The position numbers and the translations under genes were made by a program. 64,000 bases of DNA from a virus. The notes under the pieces are model-generated. The model ran no database searches and was not told the DNA's origin. It saw only the letters and a program-made list of their open reading frames with translations. The stretch covers positions 1-64,000 of IMG/VR virus record IMGVR_UViG_3300037423_000600; one strand, 5' to 3'. This document shows, piece by piece, positions 1 to 63,584 of the stretch; positions within the stretch are counted from its first letter, which is position 1, and every line of letters begins with the position of its first letter.

Positions 1-1141
1 TTATACGCCATATACTGACGGGCGGGCAGAAGGTCACAAGGTTAAGTTCCCGGACAACATCAAGTTGAAAGAGGACCAAATCCCGGCGGTGGCCGCGCTG
101 ACGGCGGTTAACGACGGAGTGCTTAATGCTGGATGCGGGAAAGGCAAAACGGTGATGTTTCTTAAGGCCATGGCCGCCGCCGGACGTACGACTTTGGTCC
201 TAGTCCACAAAGAGTTCCTGATGACTCAATGGATGGACCGTGCGACTAAAGTCCTAGGACTAAAGCCGGAGGAAATCGGCCAGTGTCAAGGGCGGTACGA
301 TAGCTGGAATTGGAAAGGGAAGAAGCTGGTTTTGGGTATGCTTCAATCCATCCATACCAACTTGGATAGGTTGTCTGACGAGTTCGTGAATTACTTCGGG
401 CTGGTCGGCGCGGACGAATGTCACCGGATGGCGGCTCCCACCTTTAGTGAAGTCATCACCCGCTTTCCGGCCCGGCTCCGGTGGGGCCTTACCGCAACCT
501 TGAACCGGGCGGACGGCTTGGAGAATATTTTCTTCGCGCATCTAGGTCCGGTGGTCTACCAGCTACTCGGGACGAATATGAAACCAGTAGTGGCCCGGGT
601 GCAGACCGGAGCAACCGTGAATCTGAACGACTTCAACGTAAGAGGCAACCTCAATATGTCGAAGTTGATTACCGGGCTCACGATGATTGATGAACGAAAT
701 ATCAAGATTCTCCGGCTCCTTATCCGGGCGGCGGAATCCGGGCGACGAATCATTGTCCTCTCTGAACGCCGGGAACACGCGGAGTATCTAAAGAGTTCGT
801 TCGACTTTAACACCAAAGGCAAGTTTCAAACGTACCTTTATCTTGGTGGCATCAAGAAGGAGGCGCGGGAGGAGGCGGAAGAATACGCAGATATCTTCTT
901 CTCCACTTACGCGATGTCCAAGGAAGGGCTGGATATTCCTGACCTTGACACCCTATTCCTTGCCACCCCGGTAGGAACAGAAATCACGATAGAGCAGTCT
1001 TTAGGCCGGATATCCCGGGAGCATGAAGGCAAGAAGGACCCGATGGTATTGGACTTCATAGACGAGAACATTAAACCTTGCTTAGGGCTTTACCGGAAAC
1101 GGCTTGAGGTATATAACCGCATGGAACTGACAATCCAATAA
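1..1141 (+). CDS. Superfamily 2 (DEAH/UvsW-like) DNA helicase, 5'-truncated by the window edge
   Basis: Frame is open from base 2. Walker A GCGKGKT, DECH box, GLTAT motif III, EGLDIP motif V, QSLGRISR motif VI. Confidence 0.9.
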   Translation, partial: YTPYTDGRAEGHKVKFPDNIKLKEDQIPAVAALTAVNDGVLNAGCGKGKTVMFLKAMAAAGRTTLVLVHKEFLMTQWMDRATKVLGLKPEEIGQCQGRYDSWNWKGKKLVLGMLQSIHTNLDRLSDEFVNYFGLVGADECHRMAAPTFSEVITRFPARLRWGLTATLNRADGLENIFFAHLGPVVYQLLGTNMKPVVARVQTGATVNLNDFNVRGNLNMSKLITGLTMIDERNIKILRLLIRAAESGRRIIVLSERREHAEYLKSSFDFNTKGKFQTYLYLGGIKKEAREEAEEYADIFFSTYAMSKEGLDIPDLDTLFLATPVGTEITIEQSLGRISREHEGKKDPMVLDFIDENIKPCLGLYRKRLEVYNRMELTIQ

Positions 1142-1160
1142 TCCAAGGAGGAATTGAATC

Positions 1161-1718
1161 ATGGCAACAGTTGAAAACACGAATTTGCACTCGGTATTAC
1201 TCGCGGCGGTAGGACTCCGGGACCCGCAAGATATCCAATCCGTCGAACTGGCGGTGGCTCAAGTCAAACGGTTCAAGGAACTGCAAGATGCGCTGAAAGG
1301 CTTCGAGCCGGAGTTCAAGGAAATGATATTCGCCATCGCGGAGAAATACGGAGTCACCGACGAGAAGGGTAACGCGACTCTGACCTTGGCGGACGGCACC
1401 GGGTACAAGAAGGAAGTTCGTCAATCGGTATCCATCGACCAAGAAGCGGCGGTTGAACTCTTTAGGTCTAAAGGACTAGGGCTTTATGTCCAGAACAAGT
1501 TCATTCTGAAAGAGGATGTGGATATCTCGCTCCTCGCCGCCAACCTGCCGGATGCTGTACGGGACCGCTACTTCGACAAGCAAGAAGTGGTAAAAGACGA
1601 AGAAATCGAGACGGCGTTCCTCACCGGGAAAATCACGGATGCCGAACTGCAAACTGTGGTCACCAAGAAAATCGTTAATGCGCTGAAAGAAGTAAAGCCG
1701 AAAGCAAAGAAAAAATAG
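1161..1718 (+). CDS. Hypothetical phage protein
   Basis: 185-aa ORF with AAGGAGG RBS; no motif recognised. Confidence 0.7.
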   Translation: MATVENTNLHSVLLAAVGLRDPQDIQSVELAVAQVKRFKELQDALKGFEPEFKEMIFAIAEKYGVTDEKGNATLTLADGTGYKKEVRQSVSIDQEAAVELFRSKGLGLYVQNKFILKEDVDISLLAANLPDAVRDRYFDKQEVVKDEEIETAFLTGKITDAELQTVVTKKIVNALKEVKPKAKKK

Positions 1719-1830
1719 GCTCGGCTACGAATCACTTTGGGGTATGAAAAAGACTTAAATGTGTTATAATAGGTCTAAGAAGTCATGGGGCTGAGTGAGA
1801 AGATATTGGGGCAAAAAGGAGGGAAACACC

Positions 1831-2151
1831 ATGCCAAAAATTTATGAAGTAAATGGGCAGGACGTAGAGTTCTTCACAAGTGGAGAACTGGCCGACGCTC
1901 TCGACAGACAGCGGCAAACGATTCGGAAATGGGAGAAAGAAGGCACAATCCCCCAAGCCCAATATCGTTCTAAAACTGGCCGCCGCTTATACACGAAAGA
2001 GCAAGTCACCGCTATCCTATCCACCGTTGAGAAATACGGGTTGAAGCAGGGGACGGCAATCCCGGCGGAGTTCAAGAAGGAAGTTTTTGAAGCCTTCGCC
2101 GCCGCATCCACCCCGGAAAAAGATGAAGAACTGGAAGTCCAGCAGGCTTGA
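1831..2151 (+). CDS. MerR-type helix-turn-helix DNA-binding protein
   Basis: TSGELADALDRQRQTIRKWEKEG..IP...RSKTGRRLYT pattern; AAGGAGG RBS; TGTTATAAT extended -10 near 1762. Confidence 0.85.
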   Translation: MPKIYEVNGQDVEFFTSGELADALDRQRQTIRKWEKEGTIPQAQYRSKTGRRLYTKEQVTAILSTVEKYGLKQGTAIPAEFKKEVFEAFAAASTPEKDEELEVQQA

Positions 2152-2969: not shown

Positions 2970-3713
2970 ATGAAAATGAGTGTTCAGGATTGGTTCTCGC
3001 AAGGTTATGAGAAGGTCGAGCAACGGGCGGCGGAAATCGATGAGGCGATGAGCCGAACGTACCTCCCGGATTACATCCTCAAAGAGGAGGATGGGGAGCA
3101 ACCTATGCGGTTTGTCATGGCTACGCCGATTACTTACTACGAGCACTTCCTCCAATCCATCAAGCGGTCCTTTACTTGTCCGGATGGTGGCGATTCCACA
3201 AAGGGCAACTGCCCGCTGTGCGCTTCCGGCAACAAGGCAAACTTCCGGGGTGCGTATCTGATTGCGGACCACCGTCATGAGGAGTGGACCAAGGATGGCA
3301 AAACCCAGAAGCGTCACAACACGCTGAAGGTTGCCAAGTTCGGGGTCAAGGTTCTCAAGTCGCTGGGCAAGCGGGAAGAGGCATTGAAGAAGAAGGGTAT
3401 GGCGGGCGGCCTGCTCGATGTGGACTTCGACGTTATGCGTACAGGCTCCGGCACCGACACCATGTATAACTTCACTCCGGTTGGCCGGAATGAAGAAATC
3501 CCGACTCCTCCGGTTCCTGAGAAGGACGCGAAGGAAGGGAAAGACTACCGGGCTCTCCTTATCGAAGCCATCAAGCCGAAAAGCCGCGAGGACTTGCTTA
3601 AGGTTCTCGGTGGAGGCGGCGGTTCCGCATCCGGTGGAAACTCCGGCGGCGGAGCGGCACGGAAGCCGATTGACCTTGGCGACGGTGACGAGGACGTAAT
3701 CAAGTTCAGCTAA
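2970..3713 (+). CDS. Single-stranded DNA-binding protein (T4 gp32-like)
   Basis: H..CPD..CPLC Zn site, RTGSGTDTMY motif, Gly-rich linker and acidic tail DGDEDVIKFS; directly upstream of the polymerase. Confidence 0.75.
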   Translation: MKMSVQDWFSQGYEKVEQRAAEIDEAMSRTYLPDYILKEEDGEQPMRFVMATPITYYEHFLQSIKRSFTCPDGGDSTKGNCPLCASGNKANFRGAYLIADHRHEEWTKDGKTQKRHNTLKVAKFGVKVLKSLGKREEALKKKGMAGGLLDVDFDVMRTGSGTDTMYNFTPVGRNEEIPTPPVPEKDAKEGKDYRALLIEAIKPKSREDLLKVLGGGGGSASGGNSGGGAARKPIDLGDGDEDVIKFS

Positions 3714-3791: not shown

Positions 3792-6215
3792 ATGGCTAAG
3801 AAGAAGGGCGGCCCGAAGGTTAAATCGAAGTCGATGGAGGTACTTATCCCCTCAGATTTTGACTTAGTGGAATGGGCGGCATACTTAAAGCAACACGCTT
3901 CCACGACAAACATCACGTTCCTTGACCGCCCGCAGGAAGAATGGGCCAAGGACCCGAATATACCGCAGACCAAGGAACATTTTGAAGAAATGCTTCACCA
4001 CATCCTCAAATACGACAACATCATTTGTGACGTGGAGACTTCCGGCCTTTCGTTCGTGGACCCCGCCGTTCAGGTGTGCGGACACGTATTGGCGGCGGGA
4101 GGGAAATCTTTTTACGTTCCCATCCGGCACATCACGAATGAACCTCAACTCGATGTAGATTACGTAAACAAGATACTGGCGAACGAAATCTACATGAACC
4201 GCAATAAATTCACCACATGGCATAACGCCGCCTTTGACTACAACCAACTCCGGAAAGACGGTATTGATATGACGTTCCGCTTTAGGGAACGGCTTATTCA
4301 CGATACCCAGATTCAATATTGGCTAGTGGACGAGAACCAAAAGGACAACGAGACATACTACTTCGTCCAAAACGGGAAACCTGCTGTCGCGTCGAAATGG
4401 TCCGGCCTTTACAAAGGACACGCGGCCAAGGCTAAAGAGGCCGGGGCAGTAAAGCTAATGGGGTATTCCCTTAAGGTTCTCTCGCCGCTTCTCTTCGGCC
4501 TGCCCATGACCAAATTCGATGACCTGATGGAGCATATCGGCTTCCACCGCCTGCCTCTCTACTTCGGCGGGAAGTACGCCCGGTTGGACGGCTTCGCCAC
4601 GGAACTCCTCCACAACCATTCGTATCCCAAGCTGAAAGAGGAAAAGATTGTGGATGCTTACCATCACGTTGAAATGCCTTATGTGCGGGTGGTGGCAAAC
4701 ATGATGCGGCGGGGCTTCGGGATATCGGAGCGGGTGGTTCTCCGTATGCGGGAACGCTGTATGGAGGAAATCAACGAGATTGATATGCGGGTGCGGGACC
4801 TGACGGGCGGTATCGAAATCAACTGGAACTCCGGCCCGCAGGTCGCCAACCTATTGTTCAATACACTCAATTATCCGGTTTTAGCGACCACGGATACCGG
4901 GAAGCCCAAGACGGATGCGGAGACAATGGAACGGCTGGCTGAACTGGGGTACCCGCTTCCGAAACTCCTTTCTCGGCGGAACAAGCTGACCAAAACGGTC
5001 GGGACCTACTGTGACGGCTTCCTAAAGGAACTCGACGTAGACGGGCGGATTCACACTTCGTTATTCCAAACGGGCACCACTACGGGCCGCCTCTCTTCCG
5101 GCGAACCGAATCTCCAAAATCTGACGGCTTCCCCGATATTCAAGGATGACTTATCCCGGGATTATATGATTCATCTTCGTAAGCAAATCGGGGATATGGG
5201 CATTAACAAGCAGTTCGACTTCACGGTTCATTTCTGTGACGCGGACGGGGAGCCTTTAGGCATGGAGGACGGATGGGAGGAACAATGCGTCAAGGTGCAG
5301 GAACGTTGGTTCGTCCGCGACTTCTTTACGGAACTCGATTACCTCAACCCGCAGGATGTCGAATACCCGGAGGATATGGCTCCGTTTATCGTGGAGCATT
5401 GTAAGAAAACCAAGGCCCACGAAATGTATGGCACCATCGACGGCCGGAAGATTGAAGAGGAATTGTGCTACTCGGTGGCGGACTTTAACCAGATGGAACT
5501 CCGGATGATGGCCCACTACTCGAACGCGGACAGTATGATATCGGCCTTCGCCCGTGGAGAGGATACCCACAAACGGACGGCGGCGGACGTATACGAAGTG
5601 GATTACAGCAACGTCACCAAGCAACAACGGAAGGACGCGAAGGCGGTCAACTTCGGATTGATTTACGGGAAAACCTCTTTCGGCTTCGCGGTGGATTGGT
5701 ACGATTCGGAACCGGACTTCTGGGTGGATGTCGATTGGGGCTCCGGCCGCGCTCCGGCCAAGAAGTATCTGGAAAAGGCTCAGGGCTTTATCGACCGTTA
5801 TTTCCAAGTGCGGCCGGAGGTCAAGGAATGGATGGACCTGACCGAAGCACAGGTTAAGAAATACGGGTACGTGCGGACCATCACGGGGCGGAAGCGGAGA
5901 CTCCCCGATGCCTTTAGCATGATTAAGTCCGTTGCAAATAAGGCATCCCGGCAGGCGGGGAACACGAAGATTCAAGGCTCGTCGGCGGATTACATGAAGA
6001 TGGCGATGATTAAAATTGAGGACAAATTTGAGGATGATGGTACCTTTGCGATGCAACTGGTTCCGGTCCACGACGAAATTGTAACGGTCACCCTCTACCG
6101 GATTAAGGACCAAGTGGAAGCGACCAAGAAGGATATCATGGAAAACATCATCCCATTACGTTGCCCGATGCGTTCGGACCCTACGACTTGGTTCCGCTAC
6201 GGCTCCGCGAAATAA
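3792..6215 (+). CDS. polA: Family A DNA polymerase with 3'-5' exonuclease domain
   Basis: Exo DVETSG and HNAAFD; TGRLSSGEPNLQN; motif A ADFNQMELR; motif B RKDAKAVNFGLIYG; motif C VHDEI. Confidence 0.95.
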   Translation: MAKKKGGPKVKSKSMEVLIPSDFDLVEWAAYLKQHASTTNITFLDRPQEEWAKDPNIPQTKEHFEEMLHHILKYDNIICDVETSGLSFVDPAVQVCGHVLAAGGKSFYVPIRHITNEPQLDVDYVNKILANEIYMNRNKFTTWHNAAFDYNQLRKDGIDMTFRFRERLIHDTQIQYWLVDENQKDNETYYFVQNGKPAVASKWSGLYKGHAAKAKEAGAVKLMGYSLKVLSPLLFGLPMTKFDDLMEHIGFHRLPLYFGGKYARLDGFATELLHNHSYPKLKEEKIVDAYHHVEMPYVRVVANMMRRGFGISERVVLRMRERCMEEINEIDMRVRDLTGGIEINWNSGPQVANLLFNTLNYPVLATTDTGKPKTDAETMERLAELGYPLPKLLSRRNKLTKTVGTYCDGFLKELDVDGRIHTSLFQTGTTTGRLSSGEPNLQNLTASPIFKDDLSRDYMIHLRKQIGDMGINKQFDFTVHFCDADGEPLGMEDGWEEQCVKVQERWFVRDFFTELDYLNPQDVEYPEDMAPFIVEHCKKTKAHEMYGTIDGRKIEEELCYSVADFNQMELRMMAHYSNADSMISAFARGEDTHKRTAADVYEVDYSNVTKQQRKDAKAVNFGLIYGKTSFGFAVDWYDSEPDFWVDVDWGSGRAPAKKYLEKAQGFIDRYFQVRPEVKEWMDLTEAQVKKYGYVRTITGRKRRLPDAFSMIKSVANKASRQAGNTKIQGSSADYMKMAMIKIEDKFEDDGTFAMQLVPVHDEIVTVTLYRIKDQVEATKKDIMENIIPLRCPMRSDPTTWFRYGSAK

Positions 6216-7592: not shown

Positions 7593-7700
7593 ACCTACTT
7601 AAGAATCTTAAGTAGGTTAAATCTAACCTACTTTAGTTCCTAAAGTAGCACCTACTTAAGAAACTTAAGTAACAATAGAAAGTAGTAAATAAATTAAAAG
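7593..7700. repeat. Cluster 1 of CTTWAG-N3-CTWAAG palindromes followed by an A-rich tract
   Basis: ACCTACTTAAGAATCTTAAGTAGGT, CTACTTTAGTTCCTAAAGTAG, CTACTTAAGAAACTTAAGTA. Confidence 0.85.
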
Positions 7701-7735
7701 ATTTGCGAATTGCTAAAATTTGGGAGGTTAGTAGA

Positions 7736-9022
7736 ATGGCTAAACCGAAAGAAGAAAATGCACTACCTCAAGGCAAGAAGAAAACTCTCGATGCGCTCAT
7801 GAGAGGCATCAACAAGAAGTATGGGGCAGGGACTATCTCGCTGGCGGGGAAGGCGGTGGCTTTAGAGGTTGAGCGTATCCCCTCGGGGTCCTTCGGCCTC
7901 GATTGCGAACTTGGCGGCGGCTGGCCGCGTGGTCGTATCTCCCTTGTCGCCGGACCTTTCTCGGTCGGGAAATCATTCCTCGCGTATTTGGCGGTGGCGG
8001 AGGCCCAGAAGAAATACCCAAACGAAACTCCGATCTGGATTGACCAAGAAGGCGTGTTCGAGCCGTCATGGGCTTCCAAGTTCGGTATCATTATCGCGGA
8101 CCCGGATGCCGACGAGAAGGACGTTCCGGTAAACGCCCTTCGTGTCGTCCGGCCGGACTCGGCGGAAAGTGCGCTGGACATTACCTTGGAATTTATCGAC
8201 TGCCCGGGTATCTCCATCATCGTGTACGACTCCATCGCGGCCAATTCCCCGAAAGACGAAATCGAAGCCTCCATGGAGGATTGGACTATGGGCCTCGCCG
8301 CCCGCCTAAACAACAAATTCTTTAGGAAGTCACAGGCTATCTTGAACATTGGCTCTCTTACTGATACCGGAAATAAGAAGCCCGCCATCTTTATGATTAA
8401 CCAACTTCGTAAGACCATGGACAAATACAAGCCGGAAGTCCTGCCCGGTGGGGAGGGCCAAGGGTTCTTCGCCTCCATCATCGTATGGCTCCGTCAAGGT
8501 GAACGTTTCTTGGAGGGCCGGGAGAACGGGCAGGAAGATGAATATGTAGGCCACGAAATCAAATTCAAGACGGAGAAGAACAAGACATTTCCTCCGAAGC
8601 GGCAAGGCTCCTTCGATATCTACGTCACCGATTCCGACACTGGATTCCGGGCCGGGCAGGTGGACCGCCTAAAGGAAGTGGTATCCTACGGCATCTATTG
8701 GGGAGTCATCCGTAAATCCGCAGCATGGTTCTACGTGGATGGGGTGGAGAAGCCTTTCAACGGCGGAGATAAGATGCTGGAGTTCCTCCGGACCAGCCCA
8801 GAACACGTTGCTCAAATCGAGAAAGCGGTTATGGCTTTAGCCCTCTCGAAGGTTAACAAGCAGGATATCGGCCCAGCCACATATACCGATGAAAAGGGGC
8901 GTGTCATTCGGGTGGACACCGGGGAAGTCGTCCACGACCCGGGCGACGATGAAGAAATCGAAGCGGGATTTGATGTTCACGGCGGTAAAGATGCCGGGCT
9001 GGTGGAACATTTCCGTGACTAA
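7736..9022 (+). CDS. recA: RecA-family recombinase
   Basis: IPSGSFGLDCELGGGWPRGRI, Walker A GPFSVGKS, YDSIAA, INQLR, PGGEG..FFAS, KNKTFPP. Confidence 0.95.
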   Translation: MAKPKEENALPQGKKKTLDALMRGINKKYGAGTISLAGKAVALEVERIPSGSFGLDCELGGGWPRGRISLVAGPFSVGKSFLAYLAVAEAQKKYPNETPIWIDQEGVFEPSWASKFGIIIADPDADEKDVPVNALRVVRPDSAESALDITLEFIDCPGISIIVYDSIAANSPKDEIEASMEDWTMGLAARLNNKFFRKSQAILNIGSLTDTGNKKPAIFMINQLRKTMDKYKPEVLPGGEGQGFFASIIVWLRQGERFLEGRENGQEDEYVGHEIKFKTEKNKTFPPKRQGSFDIYVTDSDTGFRAGQVDRLKEVVSYGIYWGVIRKSAAWFYVDGVEKPFNGGDKMLEFLRTSPEHVAQIEKAVMALALSKVNKQDIGPATYTDEKGRVIRVDTGEVVHDPGDDEEIEAGFDVHGGKDAGLVEHFRD

Positions 9023-15727: not shown

Positions 15728-16322
15728 TAAAGCGTGGGACCTTAAGAATTTGAAAGTAATGGGCCTTGACCTTAGCTTAACCTCCCCGGGTATTGCAGTA
15801 ACCCGGGGCGGGGAGCTAGTCGAATCCCTTTCCATAAAAACGACAACCGACGATTCTTGGTTTGTACGGATAAACACGGTGGCGACAAACATCGTGGATA
15901 AGGCCGTACAGCACGACCCGGATTTCATCTTCATCGAGAACTACTCCTTTAACAGTAAGTTCGGCCGGGAATTGGCCGGGGAGGTTCACGGTGTTGTTCT
16001 GCATCAACTGTTCTCGCATGGCTACGATAATATCTTTCGGACCATATCTCCCACCCAACTCAAAACCTACACGACAGGGGATTCTAAGGCCACCAAAAAG
16101 GCCATGATTCAAGGGGTTTTGGACTCTTACGGGGTTAAATTCAAACAATCCCAAAATGACCAAGCGGATGCCTTCGCGCTGGCGAAAATGGCGGAAAAGC
16201 TGGTCCAAATCGAATGCGGCCTTACCTTCATTTTACCCAAACATCAGAAAGTGGCTTTAGAAAAGGCCCAAGAAACCCTAAGGAGTGACGCTAAATGGCT
16301 GAAAATGCTCAATCAAAAGTAA
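15714..16322 (+). CDS. RuvC-like Holliday junction resolvase
   Basis: MGLDLSLTSPGIA, IFIENY, SPTQLK...TG...ATK, NDQADA. Confidence 0.85.
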   Translation: MPRSDKAWDLKNLKVMGLDLSLTSPGIAVTRGGELVESLSIKTTTDDSWFVRINTVATNIVDKAVQHDPDFIFIENYSFNSKFGRELAGEVHGVVLHQLFSHGYDNIFRTISPTQLKTYTTGDSKATKKAMIQGVLDSYGVKFKQSQNDQADAFALAKMAEKLVQIECGLTFILPKHQKVALEKAQETLRSDAKWLKMLNQK

Positions 16323-16594
16323 TGGTGTTGAAGGTGGCGGCAACATCCAACCCCGCGAGTGTCGCGGGGGCTATCGCCAAGAATAAGCAGGAAGGGAAAG
16401 AGATTCACCTTTCGGCGGTAGGCGCGGGAGCCATCAACCAAATGAATAAAGCCGTCGCGATTGCCTCCGGTTACTTGGCTCCTTCCGGCGTGACGATTGC
16501 GGTAAAAATCGGATTCATAGATATTCAAATTGCGGATGAAGAGGGCGTTATGCAGGATAAAACCGCTATTATTCATAAAGTTATCGAGGTATAA
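16295..16594 (+). CDS. spoVS: Stage V sporulation protein S homologue
   Basis: LKVAATSNPASVAGAIA...AVGAGAINQ..KAVAIA.GY.APSG signature. Confidence 0.9.
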   Translation: MAENAQSKVMVLKVAATSNPASVAGAIAKNKQEGKEIHLSAVGAGAINQMNKAVAIASGYLAPSGVTIAVKIGFIDIQIADEEGVMQDKTAIIHKVIEV

Positions 16595-16598
16595 TCTT

Positions 16599-17213
16599 AT
16601 GAAACGCGGCATTCTTATCCAAGTTGAGGGGACGGATAAGGCGGGGAAGCAAACGCAAACCGAATGGCTGGCAAAGATGCTGGCTATAGACGGGTATACT
16701 GTTTCCCTCATTCCTTTCCCTCAGTATGACACTCCGGCCGGGAAGCTGATATACGATTTTCTACACGGCTATCTGCCCTTTAGCCCAGCCGACCAGCCTC
16801 ACTTGACTCAGGCGATATACACCATTAACCGTTATGAGTGCCAGCAACGGATAGAGCGGGCCCTGACGGAAGGGAAAATCGTCATTTGTGACCGATATAT
16901 CGGGTCCAGTATCGCTTACGGTATGGGCGACGGTTTGCCGCTGGATTGGATTCTGCAAATCAGTCACTCCCTTGTTCAGCCGGACATCACGGTGATTCTG
17001 GAAATCTCCGATGAGGAGTATGCCCGGCGGTGCAATAACTATTCCGTTTTGGACCATTACGAGTCTAAATTGGAGTACATACGGAAGGCCCGTGTCCTCT
17101 ATCATAAGGTGGCGGAAGTGTTCGGCGGCCGTGTGATTCCGGCGGAAGGCAAGCCTGAGGTTGTTGCTCAAGAAGTCTACCGCTTCGTAAAGGAGAAGAT
17201 GTCCCGTGTCTGA
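16599..17213 (+). CDS. tmk: Thymidylate (dNMP) kinase
   Basis: EGTDKAGKQTQ P-loop, FPQY, ICDRYIGSSIAY, PD.TV.L. Confidence 0.9.
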   Translation: MKRGILIQVEGTDKAGKQTQTEWLAKMLAIDGYTVSLIPFPQYDTPAGKLIYDFLHGYLPFSPADQPHLTQAIYTINRYECQQRIERALTEGKIVICDRYIGSSIAYGMGDGLPLDWILQISHSLVQPDITVILEISDEEYARRCNNYSVLDHYESKLEYIRKARVLYHKVAEVFGGRVIPAEGKPEVVAQEVYRFVKEKMSRV

Positions 17214-17547
17214 GGACTATGGCATTAACCAAATTGCTTCCGACTTGGAGGAAGTCCTGACGGCTAAAGGGCACACGGACTTTATTCGTAACAAGGATGT
17301 GTATGCAATTTCGGCCCTTATCCATACGGAGGTTTCCGAGTATACGCAACTTTTTAAGAAGTACGGCTTGGCGGACTCCTTTAAGGAGGACCGTGCTATG
17401 GAGATTGCCGATATCATCTTTAGGGCTCTTAACCTTGCGCTCATGGAGAATATCGACATCGCGGCGGCCATTCGGAAGAAGATGGAGTTCAACCAGAACC
17501 GCCCGTATAAATTCGGAACACCGGAGGAGGGAAAACCGAATGTCTAA
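17206..17547 (+). CDS. MazG-like NTP pyrophosphohydrolase
   Basis: LIHTEVSE...EIADIIFR...KKMEFNQNRPYK. Confidence 0.8.
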   Translation: MSEDYGINQIASDLEEVLTAKGHTDFIRNKDVYAISALIHTEVSEYTQLFKKYGLADSFKEDRAMEIADIIFRALNLALMENIDIAAAIRKKMEFNQNRPYKFGTPEEGKPNV

Positions 17548-18280
17548 ATTAAGAACGGCTTTTGACTTTGACCCCGAACGATTGAAAATCATCGAGGTCT
17601 ACAACTCCATTCAAGGGGAGGGCATCGACATTGGTTCGGAGGTTATCTTTGTACGCACGAGTGGCTGTAATTTGTCTTGTGTTTGGTGCGACACAAAACA
17701 TAGCTGGACAGGCCAGCGCGGTGATTCCTTCACCCCCGGAGAACTTCTACGAAAAGTCATCGAAGAAACCAAAGGGGCCAAGTCGGTAATTATTACGGGC
17801 GGGGAACCGTTCGTTCAGCCGCCGGAGCCGCTGACGGAGTTTGTTATCTCCCTCAAGGCTTTAGGCTATCACGTCGCATGGGAAACTAACGGACTCCATG
17901 TGCCGGACGATACCCTAATTGAACTGACTGACCTCTTTACGGTAAGTCCTAAACTCCATTCCTCGGAGCAAATCGCATTTCCGGTTATGACCTTGGATAC
18001 GTGGGCGGCCCGGGCCGGGGCGGAAGGCAAGGTACAATTCAAGTTTGTTATCGGTAGCGAAGAGGATATGGCGGAAGCGGTGTATCTGATTACACACGCC
18101 CAAAACGTCTACCATACGGAGTCTCCCATCGTCTTTCAACCGGAAGAGTCCAAGGATAAAGAAATCTATGCGAAGCTTCCGGAAATGGCGGCAAGGCACC
18201 TTCGAGGGAAGGGCGATAATATTCTCAAGTATTATGTCCGCTATATCCCTCAAACCCATAAACACTACAAAATACGCTAA
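17540..18280 (+). CDS. queE: 7-carboxy-7-deazaguanine synthase (radical SAM)
   Basis: SIQGEG, FVRTSGCNLSCVWCDT, TGGEP, ETNG, VSPK, KFV, PQTHK. Confidence 0.95.
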   Translation: MSKLRTAFDFDPERLKIIEVYNSIQGEGIDIGSEVIFVRTSGCNLSCVWCDTKHSWTGQRGDSFTPGELLRKVIEETKGAKSVIITGGEPFVQPPEPLTEFVISLKALGYHVAWETNGLHVPDDTLIELTDLFTVSPKLHSSEQIAFPVMTLDTWAARAGAEGKVQFKFVIGSEEDMAEAVYLITHAQNVYHTESPIVFQPEESKDKEIYAKLPEMAARHLRGKGDNILKYYVRYIPQTHKHYKIR

Positions 18281-18294
18281 GGAGTGACTCTCTC

Positions 18295-18684
18295 ATGGAA
18301 ACAGTTGAAGAAAAAGTAGTACAGGAAAATATCGAGGCGGCAAATTCGGAACTTAACGCAGGTCAAGTTCCGGAGGAGATTCCGGTACCGGAGAAGAAAA
18401 CCCGAAACCGCCGGAAGAACCAACAACCCGAAGAAACCGTATCGGCGGAATCTGTAGAGAAGTTCGCTCATGCCTTTATGGTGTTGGTCCGTAACGACGG
18501 CACCTTTAGCATCGAGCCTGTCGGCCAACTGGTGGAAGCCCCACCGGAAGAAGGATATGTGTATGCTCCGGGTGCTAACGTTTACCGCACTCTCCTTCGG
18601 GATATTGTGGACAAGCTGGACCGGAAGATTATTGTGGATGAAGTTCGCCGTGCTCTGGCGGCAGGACTGGGAGGTAACATCTAA
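18295..18684 (+). CDS. Hypothetical protein
   Basis: AAGGAG RBS; lies inside the modification island. Confidence 0.65.
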   Translation: METVEEKVVQENIEAANSELNAGQVPEEIPVPEKKTRNRRKNQQPEETVSAESVEKFAHAFMVLVRNDGTFSIEPVGQLVEAPPEEGYVYAPGANVYRTLLRDIVDKLDRKIIVDEVRRALAAGLGGNI

Positions 18685-18935
18685 TGCGCGATAACCTTCG
18701 GATTAAACAAACTGATGCAACTCATTTTGAAATCCGCCGGACCATGACGGAAACCGTAAACCGTGCCAATATGGAGGACCGTAAACGCACTCTGGAGATG
18801 CAGATTGAAACCCTTACGGACCAATTGGATACGCTGAAAAATAATTTGGCGGCGGTCAACGATGCCCTGAAAAACGGCCTTGGTCAGACGGAGAAAAACG
18901 TCGAGGCTAAGGCGGTGGGCGAGGATGGAAAGTAA
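18684..18935 (+). CDS. Small coiled-coil protein
   Basis: Heptad-rich LEMQIETLTDQLDTLKNNL; GGAGG RBS. Confidence 0.6.
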   Translation: MRDNLRIKQTDATHFEIRRTMTETVNRANMEDRKRTLEMQIETLTDQLDTLKNNLAAVNDALKNGLGQTEKNVEAKAVGEDGK

Positions 18936-19503
18936 TGTAGACGGCTTGGAGTATTCCAAGGAGAATATTGAGTTCCACTTCCGGCAGATTATGATGTCCT
19001 TGGGATTGGATTTAACCGACCCTAGCCTTAAGGAGACTCCCGCTCGGGTGGCGAAAATGATGGTATACGAAACTTGTAGTGGCCTCTTTAGTGACCCGCC
19101 CAAAGTCACCACTTTTGAGTTTGAGGATGGAGCAAGTCGGGACTTAATCATCATTGAGGACATTAAGTTTTCCTCTATGTGTGAACATCATTTTGTTCCT
19201 TTCATCGGAAAGGTAACGGTGGCTTACCTCCCGAAAGACAAGTACATGGGCCTTTCTAAAGCGGCTCGGGTGGTGGATTACTTCGCGGCCCGGCCGCAGG
19301 TACAGGAACGACTCACGGCGCAGGTGGCCGACTTCTTAATGGACAAGCTGGACCCGAAAGGGGTTCTGGTTATGGTAACGGCCGAGCATATGTGCATGAG
19401 TACCCGGGGCGTAAAGAAACACGGCTCGAATACCATCACCACGGCCATTCGCGGGGAAATCGACAAACAGGAAGTCATTTCGTCCATACAACTTAAGAGA
19501 TAA
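18925..19503 (+). CDS. folE: GTP cyclohydrolase I
   Basis: ETPARVAK, SMCEHHFVPF.G, GLSK.AR, RPQVQERLT, AEHMCMSTRGV. Confidence 0.95.
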   Translation: MESNVDGLEYSKENIEFHFRQIMMSLGLDLTDPSLKETPARVAKMMVYETCSGLFSDPPKVTTFEFEDGASRDLIIIEDIKFSSMCEHHFVPFIGKVTVAYLPKDKYMGLSKAARVVDYFAARPQVQERLTAQVADFLMDKLDPKGVLVMVTAEHMCMSTRGVKKHGSNTITTAIRGEIDKQEVISSIQLKR

Positions 19504-19570
19504 CGACGAGGGACGCGAATACGGGCAAATACTGTCTAACTTCGCGTCCCTTTCTCATAGGAGGGATGTT

Positions 19571-19912
19571 ATGTTTACGTATTCGGCGGTGGTGACTCGG
19601 GTAGTGGATGGAGACACCTTTCATTGTAATATCGACCTCGGCTTTAGGATGGGCGTAAATGATATGGTTATTCGTATGGCCGATATCAACGCCCCGGAAA
19701 TGTCTACGGAGGCGGGACGGGTAGCAAAACAGTATTTGGTTTCCCGTATTGAGGGTAAGGAGATTATTCTCCGTACCTATAAACCGGACAAGTACGGGCG
19801 GTGGCTTGGTGTAGTATTCGTAGAGCCGGATAAAGGTTCTGTTAACGCGGAAATGGTGGCTAAAGGATTGGCCGTTCCTTATATGGTTAATAAGGAGGAT
19901 GGGGTCTTATGA
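19571..19912 (+). CDS. Thermonuclease (SNase-like)
   Basis: RVVDGDT, IR..DINAPE, DKYGRWLG, VN..MV..GLA. Confidence 0.9.
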   Translation: MFTYSAVVTRVVDGDTFHCNIDLGFRMGVNDMVIRMADINAPEMSTEAGRVAKQYLVSRIEGKEIILRTYKPDKYGRWLGVVFVEPDKGSVNAEMVAKGLAVPYMVNKEDGVL

Positions 19913-20268
19913 GTAAGCAAACGACCGGGGCGGTGGATATCGATGGGGTATTGGCTTCCTTGCTCGAATCCGGTAATTACCCTGAGGATTATAAGAAGAA
20001 AACGGTCATCAGCGGGGCGGTGGAGTCGCTAAAGACGCTCAGGGCTTTAGGTCACCGGATTGTTCTCTTTACCGCCCGATACGAGATTGACCGGGTAGTA
20101 ACCGAGAAATGGCTCCATGATAACGGCTTCGCCGGGCTCTACGATGAACTCATTATGGATAAACCCAAGTTCGATTACGTGATTGATGACCGGGCTATTC
20201 GGTTTGAAGGCTGGGCGGCGACCATCGACAAGGTGTTCCAACTTCATAAGTCGGGCAGGTGGTACTAA
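19909..20268 (+). CDS. Small HAD-superfamily phosphatase
   Basis: DIDGVL motif I, FTAR motif II, KP...IDD motifs III/IV. Confidence 0.85.
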   Translation: MSKQTTGAVDIDGVLASLLESGNYPEDYKKKTVISGAVESLKTLRALGHRIVLFTARYEIDRVVTEKWLHDNGFAGLYDELIMDKPKFDYVIDDRAIRFEGWAATIDKVFQLHKSGRWY

Positions 20269-20468
20269 TGAAAGAACCCATGAGAATTTCCACCCGGCTA
20301 CCCCTCCCCGCCTCTATCTGTGAACATGGATGCAAGCATATGGTGGAACTCCATATCGGAGCCAATCTCTTTCAAATGTGTGAGGTTGATGCTTTCCACC
20401 TTGGGCGCGGGCTGATGGATACGGTAACGGCGCGGGACAATGTGAAAATTTCTTTAGGAGGGAAATAA
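20268..20468 (+). CDS. Hypothetical protein
   Basis: TAATG-coupled ORF. Confidence 0.5.
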   Translation: MKEPMRISTRLPLPASICEHGCKHMVELHIGANLFQMCEVDAFHLGRGLMDTVTARDNVKISLGGK

Positions 20469-20469
20469 G

Positions 20470-20808
20470 ATGCCAGTGAATGTAGCGGTTAGTCAACCAA
20501 TGAAAATGCCTTACGGGATGGCACAGCTTATTGCTGTAACCACGGATTATGAGATTCAATATACGGTTCTTAAGCGCGGCGGGATTATCCCGAAGCAATA
20601 TAACAGCCTGATTGACCTCTTTTTCTACGTAGTGGCCGGGTACGGGAAATACACCGATAATGCCGGAACGACCTATGAAGTCCGGCCGGGCGACCGCTTC
20701 GTGGTTTTGTCGGGGGAGCAATATTCCCTTGAGGGGAGTCCGAATTACGACCTCACCCTTATTCAAACCTCCGGCGTAAACCCGGATAACGCTGTGGTGC
20801 TCGTATGA
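20470..20808 (+). CDS. Cupin-fold protein (possible sugar isomerase/epimerase)
   Basis: FFYVVAGYG...YEVRPGD.F.V..G..Y cupin pattern; the usual metal-binding His residues are not evident. Confidence 0.6.
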   Translation: MPVNVAVSQPMKMPYGMAQLIAVTTDYEIQYTVLKRGGIIPKQYNSLIDLFFYVVAGYGKYTDNAGTTYEVRPGDRFVVLSGEQYSLEGSPNYDLTLIQTSGVNPDNAVVLV

Positions 20809-21521
20809 GTACAAAATTCCAAGACAAGCACGTTCTGATGTTCTCCGGCGGGCTGGACTCCTATCTGGCGTACTTGGTTCTTCGGGATAACGACATCGAC
20901 CCGCAGTTGGTGTATGCAAACCTTGGACATCGGTACATGGAAACCGAATGGGCGGCGGCTCAGGCTTTAGCTATATCCCACGGGAAGGACCTGTTCACTG
21001 ACAACGCCCTCCGTCTGGGCGGCCGGGAAGAGGAAAATGCCTTTATCCCGAACCGGAATGGCTTCCTTGCTATGATAGGGGCCTTCTACGGTAACCATAT
21101 CTGGATGGCGATTATGGACGGGGAGCAGTCGTATCATGACTGTAAGGAAGGTACCTTTGTAGCAATGTCCATGGCTCTTACGGCTCTGTCCGGGAAGAGT
21201 ACGCTTGTGGATTCTCCGTTCTGGGATAAGACAAAGACGGAGGTAATCCGGGCGTTAGACCCGAAGTATTACGGGCTTTTGACTAAAACCCGGTCCTGTC
21301 ACCATCAGCATTTATTCCAAGGGGAACATTGTGGCGAATGTCCGGCCTGCTTCCGGCGGTGGGTTGCGTTCTCTCTGAATGGGATTAAGGATAAATACGT
21401 CCACCTGCCATGGAGTTCAGCGGTGGCGGCGGCGTATTACCGGAAAGCCTCCAAAGGCGAGTACGGCCCCAAACGGTCCCAAGAAATCCTCGACGCTTTA
21501 GCCCGGGAGGGAATCTTCTAA
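20805..21521 (+). CDS. queC: 7-cyano-7-deazaguanine synthase
   Basis: FSGGLDS PP-loop, IPNRN, YHDC, TKTEVI, TRSC, HCGECPACFRR. Confidence 0.9.
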   Translation: MSTKFQDKHVLMFSGGLDSYLAYLVLRDNDIDPQLVYANLGHRYMETEWAAAQALAISHGKDLFTDNALRLGGREEENAFIPNRNGFLAMIGAFYGNHIWMAIMDGEQSYHDCKEGTFVAMSMALTALSGKSTLVDSPFWDKTKTEVIRALDPKYYGLLTKTRSCHHQHLFQGEHCGECPACFRRWVAFSLNGIKDKYVHLPWSSAVAAAYYRKASKGEYGPKRSQEILDALAREGIF

Positions 21522-21958
21522 TGATTATTTTCACGAACGGAGTCTTTGACCTTCTTCATGTAGGTCATCTTGATTTTCTCCGGAAAATCTACGGAGAAAA
21601 GTTTAACTACCCGGACCCGAAGATTGTCGTGGGTATCAACTCGGATGAATCGGTTCGTCGGCTAAAGGGACCTTCCCGCCCGATTATTCCCCAAAACCAC
21701 CGGAAAATGATGCTTGAGGCCCTCTCCATTGTCGATAAGGTCTACATATTTGAAGAAGATACGGCGGTAGAACTTATCCGTAAGCTCAGTCCGGCGGTTT
21801 ACTTTAAGGGTTGGGATTACTTCGGGAAACCGAAATGCCCGGAGCAGGAGTTTGTGGAATCCTACGGCGGAGAGGTTCGCTTGGCGATGCCCCCACTCCC
21901 GTCTTTAGGAGTCATGCATACCACGGACATTATCAATAAAATTAAAGCAGGTGGTTAA
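21521..21958 (+). CDS. HldE/RfaE domain II-like nucleotidyltransferase
   Basis: FTNGVFDLLHVGH, VGINSDESVRRLKG..RPI, FEEDT, KG.DY, TTDIINKI. Confidence 0.9.
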   Translation: MIIFTNGVFDLLHVGHLDFLRKIYGEKFNYPDPKIVVGINSDESVRRLKGPSRPIIPQNHRKMMLEALSIVDKVYIFEEDTAVELIRKLSPAVYFKGWDYFGKPKCPEQEFVESYGGEVRLAMPPLPSLGVMHTTDIINKIKAGG

Positions 21959-27024: not shown

Positions 27025-27082
27025 TTCGATTCCGGCCTTTAGGTGATATAATAGTTATAAGTTGGGAAGGAGGTTACGGATT

Positions 27083-27927: not shown

Positions 27928-28050
27928 GATTTTGCATCCCCGGGAAACCGTCCTAGTATCTATCGCAACTCACATAGATTCTAATGCGGCTGGGGATTTT
28001 GCATCCCCTGTTTGAAGGGGTTGTATCTATCGCAACTCACATCGATTCTC
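27928..28050 (+). repeat. Two-copy direct repeat (67-bp period) carrying the TTTTG-N21-GTATC motif
   Basis: GATTTTGCATCCCC...GTATCTATCGCAACTCACAT(A/C)GATTCT at 27928 and 27995. Confidence 0.85.
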
Positions 28051-28070
28051 ATGAAGAAAGGAACCTGTCA

Positions 28071-28487
28071 ATGACACAAGAACAATTTGAAGCAACTGAC
28101 GAGCTAACGGTAAAGATTAAGATTCGCGCCGGAGATTGGAAGTTAAAACAATCCCTGCTTTCGATTAAGCTGGAAGATATCGCAGCCAGTATTCGTAATG
28201 CGGAGCAGTACGTCTCGGGCGGGGCGGACAACGATGAAAATGGAATGGCCTCCTTTAGTTTGGTACCCGTATTCACGCCGGAAATGAAAGAACAGAAGCT
28301 ATACGTCGATGCCTGCCGCCTTGTGGCGGAGACACAGAACGCTTCGGTATCTCTGATACAGCGGCGACTTCGTGTAGGCTATTCCATGGCCGCTCGGTTT
28401 ATCGACGCAATGGAACGAGATGGCTTCATCGGCCCGTACCAAGGAACTAAGCCTCGGCAGGTTTTTCTCCGGTCCAAGCGGTCTTAA
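28071..28487 (+). CDS. Protein with a stand-alone FtsK/SpoIIIE gamma (winged-helix) domain
   Basis: LY..A..LV...QNASVSLIQRRLRVGY..AAR.ID.ME..G.IGPY.G.KPRQV; no motor domain. Confidence 0.9.
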   Translation: MTQEQFEATDELTVKIKIRAGDWKLKQSLLSIKLEDIAASIRNAEQYVSGGADNDENGMASFSLVPVFTPEMKEQKLYVDACRLVAETQNASVSLIQRRLRVGYSMAARFIDAMERDGFIGPYQGTKPRQVFLRSKRS

Positions 28488-37276: not shown

Positions 37277-37373
37277 ATTTAAGTTCTTTTCCAGAGGACA
37301 ACACAAGAAGAACGAAGGGGTCTATAATAAAAGGACCGGGCGGGAACCCGGAAACAAATTGGAGGCGGTTCAG

Positions 37374-48604: not shown

Positions 48605-48722
48605 TCCTTTAGACCTACCTTGGACAAGCTTCTGAGGTAGGTCTACTTAAGACTCTTAAGGAGTTCCTACTTAAGAATCTAAAGGAACAAAATAAAGGGT
48701 TAAATAAAACTAAAACATTGTT
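48605..48722. repeat. Capsid-gene terminator hairpin plus cluster 3 of CTTWAG-N3-CTWAAG palindromes
   Basis: TAGACCTACCT...AGGTAGGTCTA hairpin; CTTAAGACTCTTAAG, CTTAAGAATCTAAAG; TTAAATAAAACTAAAACATTG as at 27.0 kb. Confidence 0.85.
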
Positions 48723-48785
48723 GATGGCTTGTATCCAAACTACCCATTGCCAATGTTTCATCCTTCTAACGGGGAGTGATTAACC

Positions 48786-61397: not shown

Positions 61398-61400
61398 TGG

Positions 61401-61814
61401 ATGGCTGAATTGGGCTACTCTGGACTTTCCTTCCCGCCGCGTATTGGAGCTAAAGGCGGGTGGGTGATGACTTCGACTGACCCTACGGATATTGCTCACA
61501 TTAAAGAGAGTATCCGGCAAATTATTGGGACACGCATCGGAGAACGGGTAATGGAACCGACCTTCGGCGCGGACATCCCGGATGTGGTGTTTCGCAGTAT
61601 GGATATCACCACAGCGAACTTGCTCCGGTTTAAAATTACCGAAGCCTTAACCAAATGGGAGCCTCGGATTCAGGTAAAGAATATCTCCGTGACTTGGGTT
61701 AATGAAACCGGGCATGAGTTTGAAGGGGCTATGATAGCGGTAATTGACTTTACGGTTCTCCGTACCCGGCTGGATAGTTCGGTGACGGTGACTTTCAGAA
61801 GGGAGGCGGCGTAA
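61401..61814 (+). CDS. Baseplate wedge protein (gp25/gpW-like)
   Basis: IKESIRQI.GT..GERVM.PTFG, AL..WEPRI. Confidence 0.9.
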   Translation: MAELGYSGLSFPPRIGAKGGWVMTSTDPTDIAHIKESIRQIIGTRIGERVMEPTFGADIPDVVFRSMDITTANLLRFKITEALTKWEPRIQVKNISVTWVNETGHEFEGAMIAVIDFTVLRTRLDSSVTVTFRREAA

Positions 61815-61817
61815 CCC

Positions 61818-63584
61818 ATGGCAAATTTACAACCGATTGACTATACCTCGAAGGACTATGAAGCCTTTAGGACAGACCTTATTAATCAGGCTTCCCGTAA
61901 GCTTCCCAACTGGACGGACTTCTCTCAGTCGGACCCGGGCGTTACGATGATTGAATTATTCTCTATGGTAGGAGATATCCTCTCTTACTACCTCGACCGG
62001 ACGGCGAATGAGGTTTACCTTCCTACGGCAACTCAACGCAGTTCGGTTATGGATATCGCTAAAGGCTTAAGCTATACGCTTCGCCCGGCCCTGCCGTCCC
62101 AAACATCCTTAGTATTTGAGATTCAGCCGCAGGCGCAGAACTTCGTTATCCCGAAGGGATATCCGGCCTCCACGGAGCAGACGGCGTATGAGGATGCGAT
62201 GTACTTCGAGACGGACACGGACCTCACCATTCCGGCCGGGGCCACCGGGCTAGAGCAGGATGGGAGTGGGAATTACCTTTACACGGTAACGGCAACTCAA
62301 GGCATTACGATTAAAAATGAAATTCTCGGCTCCTCCACCGGAACACCGAATCAGTCGTTTGCGCTCAAATACACTTCGGCCATTAATGCGCCAAGTTTGG
62401 GCTACGGTACGGTGCAAATCTCGGTTAACGAGGGTGCAGGGTACGAGCTTTGGACGGACATTACGGACGCGCCGGAATCGGTACCGGAAACTGGGAAGGG
62501 CTTTACGACCTTCGAGGATGAGAACGGAACTACGTGGATTCAATTTGGTGACGGTATCTCCACCAAGATTCCCTCTTCCGGCGTAAGCAACGTGAGAGCT
62601 ACTTACCGGGTCGGTGGCGGATTCAATACGAATGTTGGCGCGGGGACGGTAAAGGTTCTGCAATCGCCTTTAGTCGGACTAAAGTCGGTGTCCAATATTG
62701 TTTCGGCTACAGGAGGTCTGGATAAGGAAACTATCGCAGAAGCTAAGGTAATGGCCCCTCAACTCCTCCGGTCCTCGGCCCGCGCTGTAACCAAGTCGGA
62801 TTACGAGACATTGGTGAAGAGTGTTCCCGGGGTGGCTAAGGCTTCGGCGGAAGTAGATGCGGCCAACAACAATCAGGTGAATGTTACTATCGCTCCGGTC
62901 GGCGGCGGGCTCCCTACGGAAGAACTCCGGCAGGCGGCGTTTGAGAAGTTGGATGGCGTGAAGCTTATCACGACTCAGCTTGACATCAAGGACCCCTCTT
63001 ACCTTAACGTAAACCTGTCAATTACGATAAAGGTTTTGGACGGCTTTTCTCAATCCGAGGTCCGTACTTATGGCGACGAGGAGATAAATGATATCTTCGC
63101 CTTCGATAACCGGGATTTTGGACAAGGGGAGTATATCTCTCGAATCTATCAACGGCTCAACCCGCTTCAAGGTATTGAGTACGTATCGGTTAATCGTATG
63201 ACTGTTCAGCCTCGGGTGGATTGGATTACGGTATCCGGCAATCCCACATGGAGCCCGGTTACGGTTACCTCAGGGAATGCCCTCGACGGCAAATGGCGGG
63301 TGAAGATGACTTCGGCTACGGCCTTCTCTGTGGATTTCGACTCGGCTGGAGACGGTACGTTTGCTTCACCTAAAGGGGCAGGCACCTTCGGGAGTTTGTT
63401 TACCTCCAGCGGAGGAGAGCTGTCGTTTACTATCACGGCCGGGAGTATCCCATGTGCGACTAACGACTTCTGGACCTTTAGAACCACGCCGTACTTAGGG
63501 AACATCATTCCGAACAAGAATGAAATTCTACTGTTGAACGTTTCCGGGTACACGGTAACCATGGAGGGAGGGTACGTTGACTAA
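61818..63584 (+). CDS. Baseplate wedge protein (gpJ/gp6-like)
   Basis: IDYTSKDYE, WTD....DPG, FGDG, YRVGGG..NV, GG.D.ET, RAVT..DYE. Confidence 0.9.
   Translation: MANLQPIDYTSKDYEAFRTDLINQASRKLPNWTDFSQSDPGVTMIELFSMVGDILSYYLDRTANEVYLPTATQRSSVMDIAKGLSYTLRPALPSQTSLVFEIQPQAQNFVIPKGYPASTEQTAYEDAMYFETDTDLTIPAGATGLEQDGSGNYLYTVTATQGITIKNEILGSSTGTPNQSFALKYTSAINAPSLGYGTVQISVNEGAGYELWTDITDAPESVPETGKGFTTFEDENGTTWIQFGDGISTKIPSSGVSNVRATYRVGGGFNTNVGAGTVKVLQSPLVGLKSVSNIVSATGGLDKETIAEAKVMAPQLLRSSARAVTKSDYETLVKSVPGVAKASAEVDAANNNQVNVTIAPVGGGLPTEELRQAAFEKLDGVKLITTQLDIKDPSYLNVNLSITIKVLDGFSQSEVRTYGDEEINDIFAFDNRDFGQGEYISRIYQRLNPLQGIEYVSVNRMTVQPRVDWITVSGNPTWSPVTVTSGNALDGKWRVKMTSATAFSVDFDSAGDGTFASPKGAGTFGSLFTSSGGELSFTITAGSIPCATNDFWTFRTTPYLGNIIPNKNEILLLNVSGYTVTMEGGYVD

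Follow-up and report, generated by a model that had tools for sequence, protein, structure and literature searches.

The stretch analysed here, referred to throughout as the window, comprises the first 64 kb (64,000 nucleotides) of the 105,101-bp viral record IMGVR_UViG_3300037423_000600 (hereafter G000), and the element of interest is an array of the short DNA word TTTAG, which recurs at even intervals on each of its two strands. Matches to protein profiles (T4-type large terminase, SPP1-type portal, sheath and baseplate J) place G000 among the myoviruses. Its G+C content is 50%, and 145 of its 161 open reading frames (ORFs) lie on the + strand, which is called the gene strand below; genes were called by a simple ORF-based procedure, on which all gene-based counts rest. 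A 127-bp terminal repeat at the ends of the record looks like the assembly overlap of a circular or permuted genome, and no near-identical phage record was found in a database search. Its host probably belongs to the Paenibacillaceae, a family of Firmicutes, as judged from a stand-alone PrkA fragment (genome 86418-86828), whose best matches (60-69%) are to Paenibacillus and Cohnella. The genome carries another sporulation-related gene, for a spore-protease-like protein (phrog_8268; window 28991-29593).

Within the window, the array on the gene strand extends from 443 to 63481 and consists of 119 sites (102 CTTTAG, 14 TTTTAG, 2 ATTTAG and 1 GTTTAG), with a coefficient of variation (CV) of the gaps of 0.46; on the opposite strand, where the word is read as CTAAA on +, it extends from 246 to 63609 with 103 sites, 65 of them CTTTAG, and a gap CV of 0.61. 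A preliminary description of this DNA had reported about 100 fairly evenly spaced CTTTAG hexamers on +, and the count agrees closely: 102 lie on + (the first at 442, the last at 63476) and 65 on -, compared with 29 ± 5 for both strands summed in dinucleotide shuffles of the window. The twelve positions quoted there, from 16255 to 21903, are all exact and make up a run of twelve CTTTAG on + (16255..21908) with gaps of 403-645 bp, and the observation that TTTTAG fills longer gaps was likewise correct, 14 such sites being present. In the whole genome, CTTTAG occurs 168 times on + and 105 times on -, in a uniform spread.

The abundance of the word is not a by-product of the proteins encoded. When synonymous codons were shuffled within each gene, a control that preserves both the proteins and the codon usage, 15.0 ± 3.7 copies of CTTTAG were expected inside + strand genes, where 148 are observed; CTTTAG was the most enriched of all hexamers (z = 38), and CTAAAG was also in excess (87 observed, 24.3 ± 4.8 expected). 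The + strand CTTTAG sites are spread over the reading frames as xCT TTA G (87), xxC TTT AG (59) and CTT TAG (2), with 20 in non-coding DNA. The earlier suspicion that a single codon preference would not account for the sites is borne out by this control, and codon or amino-acid bias as the cause was ruled out by synonymous and codon-permutation shuffles alike.

The functional core is the pentamer TTTAG, in its fuller form 5'-YTTTAG-3', rather than the hexamer CTTTAG on which the preliminary description had centred. Genome-wide, TTTAG occurs 193 times on the gene strand (68 ± 6 in synonymous shuffles) and 172 times on the opposite strand (91 ± 8), and the C that precedes it is a preference (87% of sites on +, 61% on -) and not a requirement. 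What precedes TTT on the gene strand is predominantly a pyrimidine, at 97% of sites in G000 and at 86% and 74% in two relatives introduced below (G001 and G003, respectively), with G at only 2-6%. Beyond position -1 the flanks of TTTAG carry no information other than codon structure, on which ground a longer motif was rejected, and no one-letter variant of TTTAG fills the remaining gaps significantly.

The spacing of the word is as distinctive as its abundance. The gaps between CTTTAG sites on + have a CV of 0.52 against 0.99 ± 0.09 under the null, the lowest value among 20,000 random sets being 0.70, and only 2 gaps are shorter than 150 bp where 21.6 are expected; the remaining frequent hexamers have CVs of 0.88-1.54. 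In an unbiased scan of all 4-7-mers for evenness, TTTAG ranks first in G000 on both strands, with a CV of 0.49 on + and 0.63 on - (1.00 ± 0.09 in synonymous shuffles of the opposite strand). The mean gap between TTTAG sites over the genome is 543 bp on + (5-95% range 130-1004, gamma shape 3.1) and 609 bp on -, and the spacing on + is clearly non-Poisson, as had been proposed (Kolmogorov-Smirnov (KS) test against an exponential distribution, p = 7e-12). The gaps are gamma-like, with shapes of 2-3.8, and the longest measure 1601 bp on + and 1848 bp on -; over G000 and its relatives, the per-strand interval is approximately 550-770 bases. The preliminary description had regarded CTAAAG on + as less regular and as fitting Leu-Lys codons, which proved mistaken, since TTTAG on the - strand is also both over-represented and even (CV 0.61-0.63).

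The sites take no notice of gene organization. Their density is 1.6-2.1 per kb in every gene-length class, they are distributed uniformly within genes, and no more than 11 of the 193 gene-strand sites fall within 25 nt of a start codon, which rules out an effect of gene borders or ribosome-binding sites. Nor was any switch of polarity, such as might mark an origin, seen in 15-kb windows, the array being uniform on both strands. TTTAG is thus a DNA-level signal under selection, independent of codons, reading frame and gene borders.

The same array was found in related genomes. The contig G001 (IMGVR_UViG_3300037420_000901; 36.9 kb), whose terminase is 81% identical to that of G000, has 68 TTTAG on its gene strand, enriched and even as in G000 (CV 0.43). 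More distant is G003 (IMGVR_UViG_3300011772_000022; 106.8 kb, 41% G+C), which has a terminase 60% identical and a primase 41% identical to those of G000 and a matching gene order. In G003 the numbers of TTTAG equal the expectation from synonymous shuffles (138 against 125 ± 9 and 169 against 170 ± 9 on the two strands), yet the CVs are 0.43 and 0.57 compared with 0.92 and 1.00 in the shuffles, and gaps shorter than 200 bp make up 6% and 14% of the total instead of the expected 19% and 27%. Since the word is present there at a chance count and is evenly spaced nonetheless, selection must remove close pairs as well as long gaps; it acts both against long gaps and against crowding. Among seven shorter loci of the family, TTTAG on the gene strand ranks 1-6 for evenness among 250-550 k-mers in six, and in all four genome sets (G000, G001, G003 and the locus L030) the gene strand is the more even of the two. 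The exact position is retained between G000 and G001 at 17 of 33 gene-strand sites, over a background of 27% (p = 0.002), and between G003 and L030 at 16 of 24 and 17 of 24, over a background of 50%; many sites have shifted between relatives while the spacing persists.

Outside this group the pattern was absent. In eight control loci with remotely related primases, TTTAG ranked 72 or worse or was too rare to be ranked. The nearest cultured relative, Bacillus phage BCD7 (NC_019515; terminase 41% and major head protein 47% identical), has the same one-strand gene layout and, at 24-47% identity, the same repertoire of genes, among them those for DpdA and a DnaG-type primase; TTTAG is randomly spaced in BCD7 (CV 0.94 and 0.89, KS p = 0.7), where no other word is clearly even. 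Two 100-kb stretches of a Paenibacillus chromosome contain TTTAG rarely and with Poisson spacing (CV 0.92-1.16), which rules out a property of the host genome, and phage T7 has no even k-mer (none below z = -2.1).

The spacing is set on each strand independently. When the strands are combined, the CV is 0.75, compared with 0.71 ± 0.02 when the sites of one strand are slid past those of the other, and TTTAG on opposite strands occurs within 15 bp as often as expected (7 against 9.8 ± 3.0 in G000, 6 against 6.6 in G003), as it does within 15-30 bp. This independence points to a process that tracks one strand and not to an orientation-blind binder of duplex DNA. The evenness of the untranscribed strand, in genomes where nearly all genes lie on the other, excludes signals acting in RNA or in transcription. 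The near 1:1 ratio of the strands (193 to 172) likewise disposes of a one-way guide for a translocase, for packaging or for ejection. Of the oriented, genome-wide CTTTAG signal proposed in the preliminary description, the part that stands is therefore a selected signal at the DNA level, and what falls away is its one-way orientation and its hexameric core; among the functions listed there, lagging-strand priming fits best, and the guide for a translocase, packaging or ejection is contradicted by the near-equal strands.

A word that is read by a strand-travelling helicase-nuclease in the manner of Chi has to be weighed at this point. The enzyme could be host AddAB or a phage ResIII helicase with a Cas4-like exonuclease; whichever end it came from, TTTAG would make it give up degradation for recombination at regular distances. 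The Chi of Bacillus is a word of five letters, as is TTTAG; reading from one strand, service of both strands for entry from either end and an even spread would all suit such a role, and the phage depends on its recombination functions (RecA, a RuvC-like protein, a resolvase and the Cas4-like exonuclease). Chi-type words are, however, normally strongly skewed to one strand and randomly spaced, whereas TTTAG is divided 53:47 in G000 and 45:55 in G003, and a protective word would not explain the active removal of close pairs. Moreover, GGCGG is a far better Chi-like candidate in the same genomes, and we regard a Chi-like role of TTTAG as very unlikely.

GGCGG itself occurs 622 times on + and 142 times on - genome-wide (81:19), with 389 copies on + in the window. 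Its number exceeds the synonymous-shuffle expectation of 329 (z = 21); it is found in all reading frames and in spacers, and its spacing is random (Poisson). The skew recurs in G001 (231:27) and G003 (139:28) and is lacking in BCD7 (17:15). In the Paenibacillus chromosome, the ratio of GGCGG to CCGCC flips between two distant regions, from 106:50 to 67:143. GGCGG has the look of a polar word, of the type of Chi or of the SpoIIIE recognition sequences (SRS), that belongs to the host clade and is imitated by the phage. BCD7, which has neither an even TTTAG nor a GGCGG skew, is a useful negative control.

A duplex DNA-binding protein that docks on TTTAG to organize or compact the genome is still less probable. 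Several DNA-binding proteins are encoded that could serve, namely an FtsK gamma-domain protein, a MerR-like regulator or the reader of a CTTAAG palindrome; CTTTAG and CTAAAG differ by one letter from the CTTAAG operator half-site, and the even spacing of uptake sequences was once interpreted as pointing to compaction or replication as their function (PMC1939737). Such a binder would see both orientations of the word, yet these have no joint spacing, and the same result tells against the orientation-blind organizing protein that the preliminary description had offered. The flanks of the word hold no further information, and G003, which retains the array, has neither the gamma protein nor CTTAAG.

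Two of these features deserve description in their own right. The stand-alone FtsK gamma-domain protein is encoded on + at window 27984..28487 (PF09397, E 3e-24). G000 shares it with G001, whereas G003 and BCD7 lack it; since the array remains even in G003, the protein was rejected as the reader of TTTAG. An FtsK/SpoIIIE motor ATPase without a gamma domain is encoded at genome 80154-81554, and the gamma protein and the separate motor may together form a split, sequence-guided DNA pump, in which the gamma protein could target a polar word of the GGCGG type. The CTTAAG palindromes belong to an intergenic element of 87 nt that is present four times (7596..7714, with repeats at 26944-27030 and 48643-48729 in the window and another at genome about 77136) and consists of CTTAAG-N3-CTTAAG-type palindromes (TACTTAAG-N3-CTTAAGTA) followed by an AT-rich, promoter-like stretch. 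The element probably serves a dimeric regulator as operator and promoter. CTTAAG occurs 52 times in G000 and never in G003, and the element contains a few CTTTAG or CTAAAG, by chance; the idea that they are the same thing as the TTTAG array was rejected in favour of a separate, lineage-specific element. A further repeat, of three tandem units of 41-42 nt (TGGACAGAAYAAGTACAGAATCCG...), occupies window 37170-37294, in or beside ORFs that overlap on both strands.

Single-strand nicks, which had also been among the functions proposed at the outset, are a further candidate. According to this explanation, a nickase of the phage or the host cuts site-specifically at TTTAG, as in T5 or the tf/LUZ24-type Pseudomonas phages, and the even spacing either limits the length of intact single strands or gives the polymerase PolA entry points for strand displacement. 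In its favour, TTTAG is a short asymmetric word read per strand, with the two strands spaced independently; a family A polymerase, a ligase and SNase-like, RuvC-like and Cas4-like nucleases are encoded, and nick-associated words are known in phages (PMC3517423). In the known nicked phages, on the other hand, nicks are confined to one strand and range in number from a few to about 14, compared with 365 sites on both strands here. Opposite-strand sites within 15 bp are not avoided, and full nicking would break the genome in several places; this tolerance of close opposite pairs makes standing nicks on both strands unlikely and weighs against constitutive nicking as first suggested. No dedicated nickase of the HNH or GIY-YIG type was found among the scanned proteins, a scan that covered part of the ORFs. 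All told, nicking at TTTAG seems unlikely.

The removal of close sites bears on two further explanations. Evasion of two-site restriction enzymes could explain the loss of close pairs only, and it was rejected because the threefold enrichment, the missing long gaps and the repulsion confined to sites on the same strand are left unexplained. The other, which we consider quite unlikely, is that the terminal G of TTTAG is the target of a DpdA-like transglycosylase, possibly acted on afterwards by nearby sugar transferases, so that a bulky 7-deazaguanine mark at regular intervals stops a strand-tracking host nuclease or marks self DNA. G000 encodes FolE, QueD, QueE, QueC, the DpdA-like protein and a GT9 glycosyltransferase, and G003 also has QueD, QueE, QueC and DpdA, although FolE was not found on its contig; the last letter of the word is G, a base that is excluded from the position immediately in front of the word. 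The known targets of phage DpdA are contexts of two to three letters such as GA, in which 16-30% of G is replaced, whereas TTTAG would account for about 0.7% of G. BCD7 has DpdA, FolE, QueC, QueD and QueE and yet a random TTTAG, although its DpdA is only 31% identical, and a protective mark gives no cause to remove close sites.

The DpdA-like transglycosylase of the 7-deazaguanine cluster is itself divided over two + strand ORFs, at window 25042-26025 and 27062-27700 (phrog_887, E 3e-46 and 4e-22). These lie about 1 kb apart, and between them are an unassigned ORF of 142 amino acids (26142-26570) and a copy of the 87-nt intergenic repeat. The gene is split in G003 as well and is a single gene of 757 amino acids in BCD7. 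GATC is strongly avoided in the genome, with 19 copies where base composition predicts about 406, as is CCWGG, with 2 copies against about 205, a scarcity that is typical of the avoidance of restriction sites, despite the 7-deazaguanine pathway.

This leaves a process that follows single strands, genome-wide and on both strands, and for which too few sites and too many are both harmful. In single-strand folds, TTTAG is slightly more often unpaired than composition-matched pentamers (p = 0.11, 0.012, 0.006 and 0.017); the effect is small and goes in the same direction in all four strand sets, and the folding was done with RNA parameters. That selection holds distances along each strand shows that length along single DNA strands is gauged in some way in these phages.

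Replication is such a process, and G000 carries much of the machinery for it. In the window, on +, are a possible single-stranded DNA-binding protein (2970..3713; a weak match to phrog_1607, E 3e-4, with phrog_17226, of unassigned function, scoring better), the family A DNA polymerase PolA (3792..6215; PF00476, E 3e-85) and a RecA-type recombinase (7703..9022; PF00154, E 2e-44), which would permit recombination-dependent forks in both directions. Further along the genome are a RepO-like initiator (90848-91741), a DnaC-like loader (91729-92439), an RNase H-like ORF (93794-94327; a weak match, below the Pfam cut-off), DnaB (95612-96919), a DnaG-type primase (99130-100242) and an ATP-dependent ligase (102807-103961); a RuvC-like protein, a resolvase, SNase-like and Cas4-like nucleases and a ResIII helicase are also encoded. 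The primase has 370 amino acids with Toprim_2 and DNAG_N domains, and the residues C29, H35, C65 and C68 of its zinc motif (CHC2), together with E261, D307 and D309, are invariant across 17 homologues. Its best fold match is 2AU3, the zinc-binding and RNA-polymerase domains of Aquifex DnaG (E 1e-12), and in a search of Protein Data Bank profiles it also matched DnaG cores, but it is only remotely like cellular DnaG, at about 15% identity in the fold matches. No primase more than 30% identical to it was found in cultured phages, and the relatives of 52-74% identity that a protein search detected were not returned by the scans of viral and metagenome contigs.

We propose that TTTAG (YTTTAG) may be the template word at which this primase starts RNA primers and which fixes the length of Okazaki fragments, a reading to which we assign a probability of about 0.4. 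The primase of the phage itself, the d(TTA) inside the word, the spacing per strand and the greater evenness and conservation of the gene strand make priming the best fit; when fork and transcription run in the same direction, it is the gene strand that serves as the lagging template. In Firmicutes, DnaG initiates at the middle base of d(CTA) or d(TTA) (Larson et al., 2010; PMC2978363), and the T7 primase needs the pentamers GGGTC, TGGTC or GTGTC and makes tetramers from only two nucleoside triphosphates (NTPs) (PMC2910064). In the mechanism proposed, the phage primase would act on single-stranded DNA behind the phage DnaB helicase, its zinc-binding domain reading d(TTA) inside the word, and synthesis would start opposite the T next to A and proceed 5' along the template. 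The product could then be an all-purine tetramer, pppAAAG in G000 and mostly pppAAAA in the AT-rich relative, and a tetramer made of purines only would require a pyrimidine before TTT, as is seen at 74-97% of sites. PolA would extend the primer, and the RNase H-like protein, if its weak match holds, and the ATP-dependent ligase would finish the fragment.

Such a mechanism could also account for the distances. A requirement for five to six letters would make start sites rare, so that selection would have to supply one every 0.5-0.8 kb or so, and the short spacing would let a PolA that works without a clamp fill each gap. Crowded sites would be removed because each priming event costs time and processing, in the removal of the primer and the sealing of the strand. 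The genome would in this way encode its own Okazaki-fragment length in both strands, most tightly on the gene-carrying strand.

Several observations weigh against this proposal and keep its probability at the level given. First, the known pentamers of the T7 primase, which offer the sole well-studied precedent, are unevenly spaced, with a CV of 0.75-1.0 on the top strand. Second, the absence of even spacing from BCD7 does not single out the primase: all replication proteins of that phage are diverged (24-31% identity), and the link between primase clade and pattern is confounded with overall relatedness. Third, one family locus, L031, whose primase is 37% identical, shows no evenness. The link between enzyme and word has itself been drawn by inference, and to our knowledge a G beyond the cryptic base is without precedent in recognition by DnaG-type primases. 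Finally, each priming event reportedly slows the fork in single-molecule work on T7, and the harm that we ascribe to crowded start sites is argued from that work.

If the primase is indeed the reader of TTTAG, the recognition word of an uncharacterised primase family would be predictable from genome sequence, and the dominant direction of replication could be read from sequence alone. It would follow that the template, and not enzyme kinetics, can determine the size of Okazaki fragments, a hidden constraint on the choice of codons and amino acids would be explained at about 365 places per genome, and these phages would be the first case in which primase specificity visibly shapes an entire genome sequence. 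The generalization to a whole family is more tentative than the proposal for G000: it is possible, at somewhat lower odds, that a family of Firmicute myoviruses of about 100 kb writes the length of its replication fragments into the genome by means of a primase that uses YTTTAG only, keeping the word every 0.5-0.8 kb on each strand, straight through coding sequence, and deleting crowded copies. The array is in any case a practical marker for this uncultured family, and it calls for caution in recoding such phages or building synthetic genomes from them.

Among known systems, the sites of the T7 gene 4 primase are the closest in kind. They too are five-letter template words on single-stranded DNA, recognized by a DnaG-type primase with a zinc-binding domain, a recognition that for TTTAG we infer; in both cases the bases 5' of the start are restricted by the NTPs that enter the tetramer (for G000, as proposed above), and both phages have their own helicase, family A polymerase and ligase. 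In contrast to TTTAG, which is rarer and even on both strands, T7 sites are numerous, with 161 on a single 40-kb strand, and uneven, and TTTAG has two letters 3' of the presumed start. TTTAG has d(TTA) in common with the start words of Firmicute DnaG, and d(CTA) appears in the complementary sequence; the fold of the phage primase is that of DnaG, and the host of the phage is likely a Firmicute. The three-letter start words of the cellular enzyme are, however, too common to need spacing.

Other short words held in genomes resemble TTTAG in part. The uptake sequences of Haemophilus are likewise short, asymmetric, over-represented within genes in both orientations and more even than chance, and Karlin et al. 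(1996, as cited in PMC1939737) noted their significant even spacing and hinted at a role in replication, repair or compaction. Uptake words nonetheless have 9-10 letters, belong to a cellular genome and are tied to uptake, whereas TTTAG is a phage pentamer, spaced per strand, without uptake machinery. The nick words of T5 and the tf/LUZ24-type phages (PMC3517423) are strand-specific and short and go together with a family A polymerase and a ligase, but they number a handful on one strand and are uneven, against 365 sites of TTTAG on both strands. Chi, the FtsK-orienting polar sequences (KOPS) and SRS are also short words that selection holds across genes and that DNA-tracking enzymes read; they are strongly one-way and randomly spaced, which fits GGCGG and does not fit TTTAG. 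In the literature searched, no description was found of an evenly spaced per-strand word, or of the spacing of primase sites, in phages. What is new in TTTAG, compared with the known recognition words of primases and strand-tracking enzymes, is its even spacing throughout the genome.

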